IMG/VR virus record: IMGVR_UViG_2778261085_000012
Span: 1-25,936 of that record
Length of the DNA: 25,936 bases
Strand: one strand, 5' to 3'
Origin: a virus
Lineage: Duplodnaviria > Heunggongvirae > Uroviricota > Caudoviricetes
The notes beneath the pieces were generated by a model. The model saw only the letters and a list, made by a program, of their open reading frames with translations. It was not told the origin of the DNA and ran no database searches. The translations under genes and the position numbers were made by a program. The stretch's first letter is position 1; each line of letters opens with the position of its first letter. Below, piece after piece: positions 635 through 21,599 of the stretch.

Positions 635-1234
635 TTATGCTTGTTTACTCCTTGATTCCACTGGGGAAGCAGGCCACTCAATATCCGGTGCTCTTGATGT
701 ATCAACACGGTTCAGCAGCACTCGATACTTCTTCCATGCCACCAGTAACGATGTTTCTTCCTCTGTTGCAATATTCAAATCCACGGCATCCTGAAGTGGC
801 GAAATATGCTCACTGGCTACCTGCATGAGGCTGTTTTTTGTTTCTTCCGCCTCCCGTATCCGGAACACTTTTTCTGCTTCTGCATCTTTCACCCACGTTG
901 TGCCGTTCCACTTCTGAAACTCCCCTTCCGGGGATAACCAGGTGACATTTTCCGGTAATGGACCAAGTTCAGAAATAAATAACGCGCCCCCTGATGCCAC
1001 GTCATAAACCGTTTTACCACGATGATCTTCAACGAGATGCCAGGACGCCTTATCACTGTTGAAAATTGCCACGAAGCCAGCTGGAATATCTGGCGGAGCA
1101 ATATCAGTACTATTTGCAGGTAGACCTGTATGAGGTGGAATGTATGCATCACCTTCACCAATAAATTCATTAGTTCCGGCCAGCAGATTATAAATTGTTA
1201 TGGTCCGTGGTTGTTCACTCATTCTGAAATCCAT
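635..1234 (-). CDS. G: tail fibre assembly chaperone (Tfa, P2 gpG-like)
   Basis: N-terminus [48 protein letters not shown] and C-terminus [33 protein letters not shown] match enterobacterial Tfa proteins; track codon 1 appears to be GTG, ATG at codon 3 preceded by GAGG. Confidence 0.85.
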
Positions 1235-15385: not shown

Positions 15386-15784
15386 CTCCAGCTCCTGTAT
15401 CAGTCAGATAATTTCACGACGCTTTCCTGCTTATTGCCATCATCGACGGTCAGACTCTTACGCAATCCCACCGCGTTAACTGCATGTTCTCGCCGCCTCA
15501 GTGCGATTTTGACGGCCTTACCTTTCACCCCATCAAATCAAAAGCCCTCACGTCTTTTTCACGCTCAGCGTGAGAAATACAGCCATTCTGTTGTGTTGCT
15601 GCGACATCGTTCAGGGGATGCTATTTACCCCCTGAAACGCGGGCTGTTCCCCCGTCACCTGCGCGCAGAAAAAGCGCGTTTTTTTGTGCACGTACGGATC
15701 CTTGACGGATCCAGCCACCACGCGGGCCGGAAGTACAAAAAGTCGTTCAAAAAAATTGTGCAAACTTGTGCACTATCGTGCAAA

Positions 15785-15815
15785 CAAAAAAAAGCGCCTT
15801 ATCGGCGCTTCAAAA
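15785..15815 (-). terminator. Rho-independent terminator (minus strand)
   Basis: On the minus strand: AAGCGCC gataa GGCGCTT followed by a T9 run; sits just 3' of the 15819..16088 ORF. Confidence 0.6.
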
Positions 15816-15818
15816 GTA

Positions 15819-16088
15819 TCAATTGTTGCTGTGTATTAATCGCCAACCACGAACATATGCTTCATAGGCATCTCTGTGCCTTACAGTTCCAGCCTGGCTA
15901 AACGGAATGTTAGCTAAAACTAAATCATTCTGAGCCATAGCGCGTCCTTCAAGCGCATCTTTTATGCCTAGCTCAAAAGCACAGGCAGCGCATTTGTGCC
16001 GACCTTCTTGTCCTTGATATTCAGGGAGAGACAGAAATGTTGGGTTATAACGATGAGGGTTCTTGCAAATACCTGTTTTAGCCCGCAC
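15819..16088 (-). CDS. hypothetical 89-aa Cys/His-containing protein in the cargo slot
   Basis: GTG start preceded by GAGGT; intrinsic terminator directly downstream; contains CxxxH...HxCxxC. Overlaps a probably spurious plus-strand ORF. Confidence 0.35.
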   Translation of the reverse strand: MRAKTGICKNPHRYNPTFLSLPEYQGQEGRHKCAACAFELGIKDALEGRAMAQNDLVLANIPFSQAGTVRHRDAYEAYVRGWRLIHSNN

Positions 16089-16111
16089 TTTATTTACCTC
16101 ATAGGAAAAAT

Positions 16112-16250
16112 ATGCGTGCCTTTACAGAGGTGCGTGTAAGCAATAAAATATACGACGCACATTTTGATTTACTTCGGAAGGCACGCATATCAGGTTAAGT
16201 GAGTCCGACCGAGTTTTACGCCCCAATAGTTGCTGCTATTGGGGCGTTTT
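16112..16250 (+). other. candidate small transcript (sRNA or 28-aa peptide) ending in an intrinsic terminator
   Basis: Promoter-like TTTACA-N17-TAAAAT; 13-bp long-range inverted repeat ATATGCGTGCCTT/AAGGCACGCATAT; possible 28-codon ORF with RBS AGGA; terminator hairpin at the 3' end. Confidence 0.25.
16219..16250 (+). terminator. Rho-independent terminator (plus strand)
   Basis: CGCCCCAATAG ttgctg CTATTGGGGCG followed by TTTT. Confidence 0.6.
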
Positions 16251-16452
16251 GCATGGACAATGCCGCGCAATTATCTTGTCGCTCACAATGCGAACGATCT
16301 TACAAAAAGGCACATTACTGTCAAGATAATTGATCGTTTTAATCGATAGATAATATACAATCTATTTGTTTAACAGATCGATTATTGAAGTAAGTGTGCC
16401 AAATGGAATGATACTGTTTCTATAAACGTGAGCATTTTTCGCGCAGATGCTT

Positions 16453-16764
16453 TTACTCAGGAAATAACGCCCGGATATTCCCAGCCATCTGGCTGGTTAT
16501 TTTAGCCACTGGTGCAGACTGTGCTTCAAACTTTTTTGAGCTGATTTGTGTCACAGGTAACATCTCATCATCAGCCCATGCGGCCAGTCGGTAAGCCTCT
16601 GCCGGATTCGTCTTCAGAAGTGCCAGCCCGGCCAGAAAAGCCACGCGTTGGCCGCTTTTGCGGGCTTCTGGTGTAAGGCTGTCCAGCCAGGCGCATGCTT
16701 CTCCTTCGTTCTTGACGGCAGCTGGCTTCAGATAGAAACTTATCCGTCTGGTTGGTGTCGTCAT
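16453..16764 (-). CDS. parR: ParR-like centromere-binding protein (plasmid R1 ParR/StbB family)
   Basis: 103 aa; RRISFYLKP...AWLDSLTPEARKSGQRVAFLAGLALLKTNP parallels the R1 ParR N-terminal region; located immediately downstream of the ParM-like gene. Confidence 0.65.
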   Translation of the reverse strand: MTTPTRRISFYLKPAAVKNEGEACAWLDSLTPEARKSGQRVAFLAGLALLKTNPAEAYRLAAWADDEMLPVTQISSKKFEAQSAPVAKITSQMAGNIRALFPE

Positions 16765-16768
16765 TGGT

Positions 16769-17728
16769 TTACTCCTTGTTCATTGCGTACAGCCCATTAA
16801 CCAGAGCAAACTGTGGCACCCCGTCCGCGATGAAAGTCGCATTAACTCCGCAGGCTTCGCGGATAGCGGGTGCCACAATCTCCGCTCCTCCACCGACAAC
16901 CATCACCCGCCCGTAACCCGAAAAACCCGCCAGCGCGCGGATCACGCGTTGTTTCAGTGTTTCCTCCTTTTCACGAATAACTGCCATCAGGCTGGCGTAA
17001 TGCGCGTCATTGTGGATGTGCTGGCGCAGCCAGGCTTCATCGTGGCGATGTTCGATAATGGTACTGGCGATGTGGTGACTGGTGCGCATACCGTTGGTGG
17101 CCATCACCGACAGCACGGCATCGGCCATCAGAGAAACGCCTACGTGTGGATCGCAAAACACCTGGCTGATACCTGCCAGTTGCCCCTGAACCTTTGCCAC
17201 ATCCAGCGTGGTTCCGCCCAAATCCACAATCAGCAGGGATTCAAACGGACTCATGCCAGCCAGTGCTTTAAAGCCAGCCGGAATGGATTCAGGCATAACC
17301 CGCACGTTACGGATAGTGAATGCCTCGCCGTTCTGGTACTCCACCGGGCGCATGACGTTCGCTTTTTTGCGGTTGATGTTGGCCATGTCCGGCTGTGCGT
17401 TTGTGTCGAAATACTCGCTCAGTGGCAGGGTGACAACCACATCCACTTCCTGTGGTGTGATACCTGATTTGACCAGCGCATGATGAATGGCAATCACATT
17501 CACATCGCTGTACTGGTATTGCGTGTCAGTTGTCTGAACAAAGCGATCGCTGACCGGATCAAAATCATAGCGCACGCCATCAATCATGTAGTTTGCGGGT
17601 TGCGTGCCACCGAACGGCGCAGACCATTCCGACTTGAAGCTGTTCGGGCTGATGGCGTTGCGACGTTCGCCGTTCTCAGTCCATGCCAGCTTGATGTTGG
17701 TGGAGCCGTCGTCGATACAAATTTTCAT
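16769..17728 (-). CDS. parM: ParM/StbA-like actin-family ATPase
   Basis: 319 aa; MKICIDDGSTNIKLAW..., YSDVNVIAIHHAL, MPESIPAG, LIVDLGGTTLD and VMVVGGGAE are collinear with plasmid R1 ParM. Confidence 0.85.
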   Translation of the reverse strand: MKICIDDGSTNIKLAWTENGERRNAISPNSFKSEWSAPFGGTQPANYMIDGVRYDFDPVSDRFVQTTDTQYQYSDVNVIAIHHALVKSGITPQEVDVVVTLPLSEYFDTNAQPDMANINRKKANVMRPVEYQNGEAFTIRNVRVMPESIPAGFKALAGMSPFESLLIVDLGGTTLDVAKVQGQLAGISQVFCDPHVGVSLMADAVLSVMATNGMRTSHHIASTIIEHRHDEAWLRQHIHNDAHYASLMAVIREKEETLKQRVIRALAGFSGYGRVMVVGGGAEIVAPAIREACGVNATFIADGVPQFALVNGLYAMNKE

Positions 17729-17759: not shown

Positions 17760-17870
17760 TTTACGGGATTCTGAAATCCCGTTTTTGCCTGTTTTGTGTG
17801 CGCTTCATATATCGCGGCGCGTTTTTTGCTCATTTACGGGATTTGTGAATCCCGTTTCTGTCTGTTTTTT
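17760..17870. repeat. two copies of an approx. 40-bp repeat, each with a perfect hairpin, spaced about 71 bp
   Basis: TTTACGGGATTcTGAAATCCCGTTTtTGcCTGTTTT and TTTACGGGATTtGTGAATCCCGTTTcTGtCTGTTTT; copy 1 is in the A/parM intergenic region, copy 2 is inside the A 3' end. Confidence 0.7.
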
Positions 17871-20627
17871 GTTTCCACTGGTCAGGCCACCCCGCAGCAG
17901 GTCTGCTTTGCGGCGGGCGCGTTCAGTGGTTTCACTGATTCTCAGTGCGTGCTCTGCGTCGCGGATGGCGCGCAGCATGTCAGAAAGCACGGTAACGGGT
18001 GTTTTCATGGTGTTCTGGTCTTGCTGAAGTGTGGATGCCAGGCGTGCGGCGGCTTCGGGGTCTGATGCCCCCAGCTGTTCCAGATAGCTGGCGACCGGGT
18101 TATGGCGGATCTCCGTGCTGCTTACGCCGTGATTACGGCTCAGGCGCTGCCAGAGCTGCGTGATTCGGCTGTCCGGTCGGGTATCTGGTTTGCGTACAAT
18201 TTCAAATCCCTGCGGTGCAATGATGCTGCCGTCAACGTACAGACTGCCGCCCCGTAACAGGTGCAGCATCTGTTGTTCACCGATATGCAGGCCGAGAGAT
18301 TCGGCAGACTCCCGCCATTCTTTAGCGAGTAACTCGTGGTTATCAGGCAAAGGTCGCGGCTGTTTGCGGCTCTGTGTCCAGTTCTGCATTTCATCGCTGC
18401 TGTTTTTTGCCTGTTTGTCACGAAGCGAACGCATCAGCGCTCGGCGTTCGTGCCGTTTCAGTGAGCGCATCCATTCATTTACTTCAACGCCGTCAGGAAG
18501 CTGCGGCCACGGTGCTGGCCGTTCTTCCGGCTGTTCTGTTCCGTTGTTGCTCGTTTCCTGTACACGGGGACAGTTATTGCCACGAGTCCAAGGGGCGGCA
18601 GGGCCGCCCTGAAGGTCAAAACCATTTTCGCGGGCGCTGTCTTCCGTTTCCGGTTTACGTCTTACCAGTTTCCAGTTATCCGGATGCGTGCATACACGGG
18701 AGGATTCCCCGATGAGTGGTGACCAGATCCCGTAAATCTGTACGCTCTGTTCGCCGTAATCATTCAGCTCATCTGCGAGGTCGTAGGCGGTGCGAATCAG
18801 GTAGTCTTTGCGTGGAACAAGTACGCCGCCCTGTTTTTCAATGTAGGTGGCAAAACACCCGGCATCGGCGGCAGCGAGTACCGCATCCATTGCGTCATCT
18901 TTCAGTCGTTGCGGGCCTTCCGGGTTGCGTGCCATCTGGCTGGCAAGGCGGCGCAGTTCACGCCACACCTGACGGGAGGGGATGCCAAAGAACTGGAACT
19001 GGCGGACCCGATGAAGGCGCGCCCAGCCGATGGCGCGCTCCACACTCTCGGCCATTGATTTTCCGGTTTCGTGGTCAACGCGTGGCTTGCCCGTTTTCGG
19101 GTCGATGCCATCCACGGCGCGGCTGTCCAGGTTCTTTCCGATGTAGGTCGCGATATAGCTGGTTGGTGTGCCTTTTGAGCCGTCGACATACTCCGCCTTA
19201 AAGCGCGGAGTAATATCATTGCCCAGCTCGTGGCGGTCTTCCTGAATGGCAATATCGCGGGTGATGGCCACGATGCTGTCGATTTCTTCCGGATGAGCAA
19301 AGACCATCATATGCCAGTGCACGGTGCCGTCATGGTGAGGCTCCACCGTGCGGATGCCATACCAGCGCAGACCGTCGCGGTTCAGTTTTTTGCGGACTGC
19401 CGCAAAAAACGTGTTAACCAGGTAATCGCTGGAGTCGCGCATGGTGGCCCCGTTCCATTTGGGATTCGGATTACCGTTCTCTGTTGTGGCGTGGTATTTT
19501 GACGGGCAGGTGACAGTCAGAAACACCGCTCTGTCGCCACGGGCTTCGGCCAGAAGTTCCAGCCCCTTCATGGTGGCCATCATTTCTGCCTTACGGTGAA
19601 CCGGGTTACTTACTCCCGCGTAATACACTGTCTCGAGATCAATCGTGAACCCGTCTTCGTTTTCCAGCATGAAACTTTTCAGGAAATCGCGTGTTTTCTC
19701 GCGCTGCGCGCGAAACTCGCTTAATGCGTCCTGACTCAGATAGGGCGATGTTTTTCTGGAAACCAGACAGGCGGCGCGGAGTTGTTCTTCCCGCCACTCG
19801 CAACGTAACAGCCACAGTTTGCGTTTCCACCATTCCGCACAGGTCAGGCGAAGGATTGCACCCGGCAGCAGCTCCGTGTCCGGTTCGTTCCTCCGGTCTT
19901 TGTCTGTTGTCAGTGCGTCATAATGTGGAGGCATGGCGTGCAGGTGTAACGCCATGCGGGCCAGCATCTGATACGCCTTCAGCGTTACATCCATGGTCAG
20001 CTCGCCATCGGTCGCGCCAAAGCCATCGCAGAGTTTTTCGAAAGTGCTGCTGAACATCGCCGCCGTCATGGTGGCCAGCGTCTGTATCTGGTGTTTGTTG
20101 AGCTGCGGCAGGTAAAGCAAATCATCCAGGCGTTCGCGTCCGGCAAGGGAGCGATAACCCGGTGTCAGCCAGCGGTGGTCGGTGCGGTCCAGACGTTCGA
20201 ATATTTTGCGCAGGGTTCCGCGTGCATAGCGTTCCGCCTGCCAGCTCTTTTTGCCTTTCCGGCGATCGGCTTCCTGTTTTTTGCGCAGGAAGGAGAGGTG
20301 GCGAATAAGCGGATCGCGCAGATAGGACGGCAGCAGGCGCAGCGAGGCCATGGCTTCATCCACCGCGCCGCGTGCCTGTTTTCTGGCGTCTCCTGCCAGT
20401 GTGATGGTTTTGTCCTGTTTTTCCTGTGCGTCCAGGTTTTTATTAATCAGGTTGCCCAGCGGCGTGGCGGAGAACGCCGCATCAGCCATTTCCTGGCGGC
20501 GCTCGTTCTCTACCCGGTAGGCATCCAGCCAGGAGGAAAGCGCGGATTTAGGAGCGGGGATCCCCGTTCCTTCACGCCCCACTGCGTGGCGCGGTTGTTG
20601 CCAGTCCCTGATGTACTCTGCCGTCAT
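17805..20627 (-). CDS. A: replication initiation endonuclease A (rolling-circle, P2 gpA-like)
   Basis: 940 aa; conserved core ...LTVTCPSKYH...WYGIRTVEPHHDGTVHWHMMVF...YIATYIGKNLD...; longer than P2 A (about 760 aa as remembered). Confidence 0.9.
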   Translation of the reverse strand: MTAEYIRDWQQPRHAVGREGTGIPAPKSALSSWLDAYRVENERRQEMADAAFSATPLGNLINKNLDAQEKQDKTITLAGDARKQARGAVDEAMASLRLLPSYLRDPLIRHLSFLRKKQEADRRKGKKSWQAERYARGTLRKIFERLDRTDHRWLTPGYRSLAGRERLDDLLYLPQLNKHQIQTLATMTAAMFSSTFEKLCDGFGATDGELTMDVTLKAYQMLARMALHLHAMPPHYDALTTDKDRRNEPDTELLPGAILRLTCAEWWKRKLWLLRCEWREEQLRAACLVSRKTSPYLSQDALSEFRAQREKTRDFLKSFMLENEDGFTIDLETVYYAGVSNPVHRKAEMMATMKGLELLAEARGDRAVFLTVTCPSKYHATTENGNPNPKWNGATMRDSSDYLVNTFFAAVRKKLNRDGLRWYGIRTVEPHHDGTVHWHMMVFAHPEEIDSIVAITRDIAIQEDRHELGNDITPRFKAEYVDGSKGTPTSYIATYIGKNLDSRAVDGIDPKTGKPRVDHETGKSMAESVERAIGWARLHRVRQFQFFGIPSRQVWRELRRLASQMARNPEGPQRLKDDAMDAVLAAADAGCFATYIEKQGGVLVPRKDYLIRTAYDLADELNDYGEQSVQIYGIWSPLIGESSRVCTHPDNWKLVRRKPETEDSARENGFDLQGGPAAPWTRGNNCPRVQETSNNGTEQPEERPAPWPQLPDGVEVNEWMRSLKRHERRALMRSLRDKQAKNSSDEMQNWTQSRKQPRPLPDNHELLAKEWRESAESLGLHIGEQQMLHLLRGGSLYVDGSIIAPQGFEIVRKPDTRPDSRITQLWQRLSRNHGVSSTEIRHNPVASYLEQLGASDPEAAARLASTLQQDQNTMKTPVTVLSDMLRAIRDAEHALRISETTERARRKADLLRGGLTSGNKKQTETGFTNPVNEQKTRRDI

Positions 20628-21302: not shown

Positions 21303-21486
21303 GACGTGGCCTCGTGTATAGTAAGTTTTGAAAACTCACCATCCAGAGTTGAGAATCTCGGGGTGGCGAGACGTACGGGGTTCTCAACACCGGCTACACA
21401 CGATCCCGGCCCGACCGAAGTCGGCCCCGTACGCCCCGCCATAATTCTGACGCGAAAAAGACGTGGCAATACAGTACGCACAAAAA

Positions 21487-21502
21487 AACCGCTGGCGCGG
21501 TT
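21487..21502 (-). terminator. candidate intrinsic terminator (minus strand) inside the early operon
   Basis: On the minus strand: AACCGC gcca GCGGTT followed by T7; short 6-bp GC-rich stem. Confidence 0.35.
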
Positions 21503-21599
21503 GTGCGCGTGTGTAGTCAGCGGGTTGAGAATCCCGGCACCCGTTTTATGAGGTGCAGCGGAAATGTAACCCGACTCAACGAGCGCTGGCAAGCGGTTT

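Follow-up and report, generated by a model that had tools for sequence, protein, structure and literature searches.

The question raised by this locus is what a small, cysteine- and histidine-containing open reading frame (ORF) is doing beside the ParM and ParR-like genes of a prophage, and whether it belongs with them. The ORF encodes 89 amino acids (aa) and lies on the minus strand at 15819-16088 of a 25,936-nucleotide (nt) stretch of viral DNA (IMG/VR record IMGVR_UViG_2778261085_000012), which is called the window here. An earlier interpretation made from the letters alone, hereafter the sequence-only reading, had suggested that the product is a small metal-binding protein and may be a third component of the cargo locus downstream of parM/parR. 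Judged by sequence comparison, the ORF is a genuine gene, frequently unannotated and uncharacterized, and the family to which it belongs is tightly linked to restriction-modification (R-M) systems of the Dam/DpnII type. As to its role, we tentatively favor the explanation that the product may be an orphan zinc-binding and DNA-binding module that reads GATC or its adenine-methylation state, descended from an R-M component and acting against the background of host Dam methylation.

The gene and its ends consist of the following features:

15819..16088, minus strand: coding sequence of the 89-aa protein, with GTG start, TGA stop and homology; predicted CHCC zinc site and two pseudo-repeats
16096..16100, minus strand: Shine-Dalgarno sequence GAGGT, 7 nt 5' of the GTG, with predicted pairing to ACCU at 16195-16192
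15781..15811, minus strand: intrinsic terminator of the gene, a stem-loop at 15811-15791 followed by T8-G-TTT
15758..15773, minus strand: second terminator-like hairpin with T7 after it, serving as a back-up ahead of the cos region

The frame, the GTG start codon (16088-16086) and the GAGGT ribosome-binding site (RBS; 16100-16096) are present just as the sequence-only reading had described them. It had also described a minus-strand hairpin with a run of nine T residues, 4 nt beyond the stop codon. The G+C hairpin, of the form GAAGCGCC-GATA-AGGCGCTT, and the T run after it do exist, but the run counts eight T residues before a G and a further TTT, and 7 nt separate the TGA from the stem that our scan identified.

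The length of the ORF is not significant by itself, with many spurious ORFs of similar size in the window, and we consider the gene real because of its homology. It matches PHROG 3941, a family of unknown function, with an E-value of 6.3e-49 (residues 4-89 against positions 1-86 of the 86-position profile). All copies in IMG/VR (32 of 32) are intact and have the GTG start. Loss of the frame in close relatives had been proposed as the observation that would speak against a gene; in the relatives the frame is kept down to about 35% identity. Copies in E. coli differ by at most 2 nt, and dN/dS is therefore uninformative. The same protein is registered as WP_001390707: PGAP annotates the ORF in some E. 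coli genomes, and leaves the identical intact ORF unannotated in others (chromosomes L015 and L016). NCBI also has an 83-aa version of this ORF, which implies a different start. The 89-aa product is soluble and non-hydrophobic, with an isoelectric point (pI) of 9.2 and a net charge of +3.8.

To what family does the protein belong? An exhaustive HMMER search returned 172 representatives at the 50% identity level, and a profile search returned 1,598 clusters at the 90% identity level, so that the family is at least this large; its members are all unnamed or labeled 'hypothetical'. Scanning one genome per species gave 227 loci in many groups, including Gammaproteobacteria, Bacteroidota, Firmicutes, Spirochaetes, Myxococcota, Actinobacteria and Verrucomicrobia; a scan of viral contigs with the single protein found almost only near-identical copies. 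Six residues are invariant in the family (C8, H12, R30, G41, Q65 and R70), and five more are conserved in at least 90% of members (H31, C33, C36, S64 and H71). The CxxxH...HxCxxC pattern noticed in the sequence-only reading (C8-x3-H12...H31-x-C33-x2-C36) is present and coincides with this conserved core. It fits a CHCC metal site with C8, H12, C33 and C36 as the predicted zinc ligands, and we infer that the domain binds zinc. The protein also contains two pseudo-repeats of the form SQxGxxRH(K/R)xAxxAYxxG.

Scans of the ORF against Pfam, NCBIfam and PADLOC gave nothing usable: at E ≤ 1 the only Pfam match was to the irrelevant PF08100 (13.6 bits, with a cut-off of 25.6), and PADLOC has no model for the solitary protein. 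Sequence searches of PDB, with the single sequence and with the profile, returned chance-level matches only, the best being the zinc knuckle of CRIPT (E-value 0.41). The AlphaFold2 model of the protein, which is confidently predicted, has no fold match in PDB or BFVD. We found no publication on this protein, on WP_001390707 or on PDC-S36, a PADLOC candidate that comes up below. This is a large uncharacterized family with a conserved CHCC signature and a predicted fold without a known counterpart.

The genomic company of the family was surveyed by taking the nearest ORF on each side of the homolog in 80 species loci, 148 ORFs in all. Among these neighbors are 18 D12-class (Dam-like) adenine methyltransferases, 16 DpnII endonucleases and 15 N6_N4 (DpnA-like) methyltransferases. 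R-M genes of the DpnII/Dam (GATC) type lie within 2.5 kb in 41 of the 80 loci, and a DpnII-family endonuclease in 30 (tblastn). The typical order is methyltransferase, small gene and DpnII endonuclease, with gaps of 2-50 nt and a Shine-Dalgarno sequence of the small gene's own. At other loci the homolog stands beside a D12 methyltransferase and a type II endonuclease (DUF6996/6997/7226), or beside the PADLOC candidate PDC-S19 (DUF3644), TIR or AbiEii genes. The window ORF has no R-M genes near it. In Citrobacter, Buttiauxella and Klebsiella (L086, L087 and L105) the next gene 3' of the small gene, in the same orientation, encodes a 320-334 aa protein whose N-terminus is a DUF4062 domain, and these loci have no R-M genes.

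The domain also occurs in fusions. It forms the C-terminus of DpdB/DndB-like proteins whose genes themselves lie just 5' of a DpnII endonuclease gene, and it is joined to a WYL protein in one arrangement and to HNH_2 in another. NOV_C/DUF3883 proteins with a match to PADLOC PDC-S36 begin with two copies in tandem, DUF3883 being a PD-(D/E)XK family (PMC3424549), and paralogous NOV_C proteins carry the modification-reader domains EVE or MrcB_N in that same N-terminal position. The genes with tandem zinc (Zn) domains (ZnZn-NOV_C) occur in operons of the order D12 methyltransferase, PDDEXK_11 and ZnZn-NOV_C, followed once by HARE-HTH. The partner nucleases thus span several unrelated folds, and the constant feature is Dam-class (GATC) methylation. 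We infer from this combination that a module reading DNA or its methylation is to be favored over an inhibitor of one specific enzyme.

The closest known kinds are the R-M controller proteins, which share the operon position and differ in fold, and the reader domains fused to restriction nucleases. Controller proteins such as C.PvuII, C.BamHI, C.AhdI and C.Esp1396I are, like many of the homologs, small proteins encoded within an R-M operon, typically just 5' of the endonuclease gene and co-oriented with it, and their expected role is the timing and control of restriction (reviewed in PMC12707154). They are Xre-type helix-turn-helix (HTH) dimers, whereas the present family matches no HTH family in Pfam at E ≤ 1, has a CHCC motif and lacks a fold match in PDB; in addition, no C-box operator was identified and the window copy has no R-M partner. 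The second likeness is to the DpnI winged helix and the winged-helix fusions of type IV enzymes (PMC11037411), and to the EVE/MrcB_N-NOV_C proteins, which share the N-terminal reader slot on NOV_C and HNH nucleases and the link to adenine (Dam-class) methylation. Their folds are unrelated to this one. A further difference is that the nucleases fused to our domain adjoin a D12 methyltransferase, an arrangement suggesting that the sites recognized are those lacking methylation and not those bearing it. The same Zn motif is found twice at the N-terminus of PDC-S36-type proteins; the window protein differs from them in having no NOV_C/DUF3883 nuclease domain and no match to the PDC-S36 model.

How is a solitary copy of the gene controlled? 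In Dam+ Gammaproteobacteria, the solitary genes sit behind a conserved leader of about 250 nt, seen in Salmonella, Enterobacter, Rahnella, Yersinia, Pantoea, Citrobacter, E. whittamii, Providencia, Proteus, Arsenophonus and Gilliamella. The conserved sense promoter has the form TAAG-nn-GATC-6/7 nt-TTGAnn-17 nt-TAnnAT, and its upstream GATC does not vary across 14 loci, the window among them. A second GATC in the relatives lies within the -35 element (TTGATC), on the 3' edge of the -10 element (TAGGATC or TAAGATC) or just past it. In the Dam+ relatives the 300 nt upstream contain GATC at 10-17 per kb, compared with 1-4 per kb in most flanks. Five control elements are predicted in the window:

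16297..16324, minus strand: predicted sigma-70 promoter (TTGACA, 16 nt, TAAGAT), positionally homologous to the conserved promoter of 13 related loci
16296..16379, no strand: cluster of three GATC (Dam) sites at 16296-16299, 16332-16335 and 16376-16379
16089..16290, minus strand: structured 5' leader of about 200 nt, fold z = -4.8 against shuffles
16121..16149, plus strand: predicted antisense promoter (TTTACA, 17 nt, TAAAAT), 10 of 12 consensus positions, placed as in relatives
16156..16252, plus strand: predicted cis-antisense small RNA (sRNA), about 95-105 nt long and complementary to the leader throughout, with a terminator hairpin at 16218-16247 followed by UUUUG

The window GATC at 16296-16299 overlaps the 3' edge of the -10 hexamer, and that at 16332-16335, 7 nt 5' of the -35 hexamer, is the site found in all relatives. 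The leader holds a perfect 13-bp stem (16190-16178 with 16122-16110). In the predicted fold the Shine-Dalgarno sequence pairs with ACCU at 16195-16192 and this pairing stacks on the stem, leaving the AGG core with an unpaired probability of 0.02-0.09; in most relatives it is predicted to lie in a local hairpin. A perfect 11-nt inverted repeat (CAATTATCTTG / CAAGATAATTG, at 16268-16278 and 16322-16332) flanks the sense promoter of the window, with one arm adjoining the invariant GATC; it may be an operator, and was seen in the window lineage only. Five related loci (L004, L060, L062, L064 and L072) have a conserved terminator about 100 nt 5' of the sense promoter (ggtcgcaga(a/g)atgcggcc, then a T run), which seems to shield these solitary cassettes from transcription entering from upstream. 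Between parR and the promoter of the window, no such terminator was seen.

A further conserved element is predicted to be transcribed from the opposite strand of the leader. Its promoter in the relatives has the form TTTAC(A)-17-TAnnnT, with core positions invariant in the alignment. The antisense RNA of the relatives, about 80-105 nt long, would have a single-stranded 5' end (C)GAGAUCUCAA, an A/U hairpin, a G/C terminator hairpin and a U/C-rich tail. We described it by two models, R1 and R2, neither with an Rfam entry, which share a single-stranded 5' GAGAUCUC and transcription opposite to the leader. A covariance model was built from four antisense RNAs, starting from a structure given by hand and followed by realignment to the model. 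It finds the element in 17 loci, always opposite the gene strand and at a constant distance, in Enterobacterales and Gilliamella; examples are L004 3845-3923 (-), L060 2344-2424 (-) and L005 3852-3927 (-).

In the sRNA alignments, 94% of paired cells can pair, compared with 68-70% after shuffling, a figure to be read with the caveat that these alignments were themselves fitted to the covariance model. Compensatory changes occur at 16-19 of 20 pairs. The covariation score is 0.56-0.59 versus 0.17-0.20 for shuffled alignments, a level reached by none of 500 shuffles, and it falls to 0.10 or less when the structure is slid by 1-3 columns. Many of the pairs are G-U on the antisense strand, which correspond to A-C mismatches on the sense strand. 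RNAalifold applied to a plain MAFFT alignment recovered five pairs only, with the stems out of register. Rfam has no family that matches the leader or the antisense RNA in the window and ten relatives; weak Rfam matches to sar and ctRNA at 16218-16247 were rejected as reflecting a terminator-like hairpin. We regard it as settled, within what comparative sequence analysis can tell, that solitary enterobacterial copies carry a conserved, GATC-bearing predicted promoter and a covarying putative antisense sRNA. For the window the sRNA (about 16156-16252) is predicted; the best match there to the second model is the terminator hairpin at 16216-16246 (+), with 20.9 bits and an E-value of 0.007, versus 14.4 bits on the minus strand. 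When the sRNA-bound leader was modeled, the Shine-Dalgarno sequence was not freed in silico, so the direction of antisense control (repression, cleavage or activation) cannot be inferred from the model.

Under the explanation that we favor, the domain would bind zinc and recognize GATC sites or their adenine-methylation state, and a family member would serve as a controller or targeting subunit within an R-M system. In the prophage, the gene would have been orphaned from such a system, and its product would work with host Dam methylation. Its expression would be restricted at three levels, predicted in the window as described: the GATC-bearing sigma-70 promoter, the leader that sequesters the Shine-Dalgarno sequence, and the cis-antisense sRNA from inside that leader. 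A burst of protein would follow only when the GATC sites of the cassette are un- or hemimethylated, as on phage replication, induction or entry. When mobile elements are in conflict, the protein might then bind GATC DNA that is under-methylated, either to protect the DNA of its own phage or to block that of a rival, and its uncontrolled synthesis would probably be harmful to a Dam+ cell.

A precedent for such control is found in the IS10/Tn10 transposase, which is governed by the Dam-sensitive promoter pIN and the antisense RNA-OUT. Both cases have a GATC over the sense -10 element and a cis-antisense RNA from an internal opposing promoter, an arrangement that couples expression to the passage of a replication fork or to the entry of new DNA. 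The present leader differs from IS10 in that the antisense RNA covers a region well 5' of the RBS and not the RBS itself, and that the promoter would depend on Dam by analogy. The most far-reaching form of the proposal is that a new zinc fold senses GATC adenine methylation both as a fourth, non-HTH component of DpnII/Dam-type cassettes and as a reader on NOV_C and HNH nucleases, and that its captured orphan, under a Dam-gated promoter and a new sRNA family, has become a methylation-triggered effector with control resembling that of a type I toxin-antitoxin system. Taken whole, we hold this extended form to be speculative and rather unlikely.

Several observations weigh against the favored explanation. 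Zinc and DNA binding are both deduced from the sequence, the predicted fold resembles no known DNA-binding domain, and the family is not uniformly basic (pI median 7.7, range 5.0-9.8). The association with R-M genes would be explained just as well by protein-protein contact with the methyltransferase or the nuclease. The GATC enrichment 5' of R-M-embedded homologs turned out to be coding sequence of the methyltransferase, and we did not take it as regulatory evidence. The GATC-bearing promoter could answer to Dam, SeqA or another factor independently of this protein. The antisense RNA of the window matches the family model in the terminator hairpin only, its 5' half having diverged and lacking the GAGATCTC GATC motif. 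Finally, the P2 hotspot in which the gene lies (see below) holds non-defense cargo as well.

The rival that survives best is a module like a type I toxin-antitoxin system, in which the Zn protein would be a toxic effector of addiction or abortive infection and the antisense sRNA its antitoxin, with a target that need not involve GATC. Such modules are what one would expect of a solitary small gene on prophages and plasmids that has a long structured leader with a predicted sequestered Shine-Dalgarno sequence, a conserved and covarying cis-antisense sRNA with its own promoter and terminator, and a record of being missed by automatic annotation. Type I toxins that are not membrane proteins exist, namely RalR/RalA of the rac prophage and SymE/SymR, which are likewise small soluble proteins, borne by prophages, under the control of an antisense sRNA; ralR was initially reported as a gene for restriction alleviation. 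Neither in sequence nor in predicted structure does the window protein resemble RalR or SymE. Against this reading, the protein is 89 aa long, soluble and non-hydrophobic, and in most phyla its homologs are stable members of ordinary operons, encoded between R-M genes, where no antisense RNA was detected. We consider this reading improbable as a full account, but it is compatible with the favored explanation and does not exclude it.

A protein-protein modulator of R-M enzymes would explain other parts of the same evidence. Here the small protein would inhibit, activate or chaperone the endonuclease or regulate the Dam-family methyltransferase, and the orphan would be an anti-restriction factor or a modulator of host Dam. 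The position of the gene directly between the methyltransferase and endonuclease genes, with the D12 methyltransferase as its most constant partner, and the fusions to nucleases are in line with this; the variable pI of the family suits a protein partner, and carriage by mobile elements fits anti-restriction genes. The breadth of the partners is against it, as one inhibitor is unlikely to act on the DpnII family, the PD-(D/E)XK domain of NOV_C, HNH_2, PDDEXK_11 and DUF6996/6997, whose folds are unrelated. In NOV_C proteins the domain fills the slot of the readers EVE and MrcB_N, and the fusions to DndB-like and WYL proteins point to DNA or to regulation. The window protein is not an acidic DNA mimic, its net charge and pI setting it apart from anti-restriction proteins of that kind (Ocr, ArdA), and the DNA of a Dam+ host is already protected from DpnII-type enzymes. 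We judge this modulator distinctly unlikely.

A phage-specific transcription factor or antirepressor, such as a zinc-finger late activator of the Ogr/Delta type or a Tum-like protein, is suggested by the presence of a small Cys/His protein in a P2-family phage and by the tum gene of phage 186, which occupies the equivalent genomic position. The Pfam scan gave no transcription-factor or zinc-finger match at E ≤ 1, and none to the Ogr/Delta activators. A family spread over unrelated phages, plasmids, R-M operons and many phyla is a poor fit to the promoters or the repressor of one phage, which makes this reading very improbable.

Does the gene, then, belong with its ParM and ParR neighbors? The window is a P88-like prophage (Xuanwuvirus, Peduoviridae, P2 family) with the gene order gpO, terminase gpP, portal gpQ (to 15331), cos-proximal region, the ORF, the parR-like gene, ParM and gpA. 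The cassette and the genes on its far side are as follows:

15796..16452, no strand: autonomous cassette (promoter, leader with antisense RNA, ORF and terminator) from the parR stop to the cos-proximal side, in the gpA-gpQ hotspot, where P88 carries other cargo
16453-16764: Plasmid_stab_B (ParR-like) gene
16769-17728: ParM gene
17805-20627, minus strand: gpA replication endonuclease, 940 aa

Homology to phage P88 is continuous across parM-parR (94%) and on the portal-cos side (93%). It ends precisely at 16453, the parR stop, and at 15795; P88 carries two unrelated genes between these points, so that the 657 bp of 15796-16452 form a swappable cassette. Of 5,426 complete E. coli genomes, 166 contain a match of at least 98.7% identity to a 681-bp query spanning it (15780-16460), in every case on the chromosome. 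The gpA-gpQ interval is a hotspot of accessory and anti-phage genes in P2-like phages, about a quarter of which carry a ParM/ParR-type pair there (Rousset et al. 2022, PMC9122126). The supplementary table of loci in that study enters the WP_001390707 locus as 'StbA + Plasmid_stab_B + hypothetical', and we found no activity assay of this cassette in its material. Like P2 old/tin and other gpA-gpQ cargo (PMC9122126), the cassette is an independently expressed accessory unit in the same cos-proximal variable slot; unlike them, it has no homology to Old, Tin or any PADLOC model. It is an autonomous cassette in the cos-proximal part of the variable gpA-gpQ hotspot.

More distant phage and plasmid homologs, with 40-61% identity to the window protein, have no ParMR nearby. 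One lies directly 3' of the cI repressor in a P22-like Salmonella phage, others, in a Providencia phage and an Arsenophonus phage-plasmid, are encoded on the opposite strand with the Q antiterminator on one side and the lysis genes on the other, and one on an E. marmotae IncF plasmid adjoins toxin-antitoxin, TIR and macro-domain genes. Homologs in defense islands and in chromosomal R-M operons likewise stand apart from ParM/ParR. The proposal of the sequence-only reading that the ORF is a third component of the ParM/ParR cargo can appeal to the shared strand, with the ORF 364 nt 3' of parR, no predicted terminator between them and read-through from parMR possible, and to a 681-bp match that overlaps parR in every E. 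coli record listed (40 of 166), but it is the least probable of all and is not supported, being largely refuted by P88 and other Xuanwuviruses that retain parMR with different cargo in the slot, by homologs in elements without partition genes nearby, by the absence of any ParM/ParR family among the 25 most frequent Pfam families of the 148 neighbor ORFs, and by the ORF's own predicted promoter.

Other features of the region were noted alongside. On the portal side, a plus-strand terminator at 15661-15679 closes the portal operon, and beyond it two close GGATCC sites lie in the cos-proximal stretch at 15700-15725, one containing the GATC at 15708. In the gpA endonuclease, the Phage_GPA domain covers residues 179-503 only; for the long C-terminal part, the matches are to PHROGs of unknown function. 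The Rfam elements C4 antisense RNA (76.8 bits) and isrK (61.8 bits) adjoin each other at 21359-21446 (-) and 21482-21556 (-); they are RNA immunity elements of the P1/P7 type, here within a P2-family prophage, and the pair also occurs in the Arsenophonus phage-plasmid (L014, 7145-7328). A full-length match to Rfam IS009 RNA lies at 693-891 (-) with 184.9 bits. In Escherichia phage 503458 (NC_049341, L002) the genes for the portal, the terminase, ParM and gpA have each been split up into several short coding sequences, and the ORF homolog is broken; these splits look like indel errors of assembly and not like biology.

If the favored explanation is true, the well-studied DpnII/Dam-type R-M systems would have an overlooked extra component with a new fold, and candidate defense nucleases would make use of this module as a DNA reader. 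An orphan copy of it, controlled by a combination of Dam-site promoter and antisense RNA that was known before mainly from IS10, would be present in about 3% of complete E. coli genomes and in many from Salmonella and Providencia. The locus would then add a new class of methylation reader, an sRNA family missing from Rfam, and a link between Dam and a prophage accessory gene in the P2 defense hotspot.

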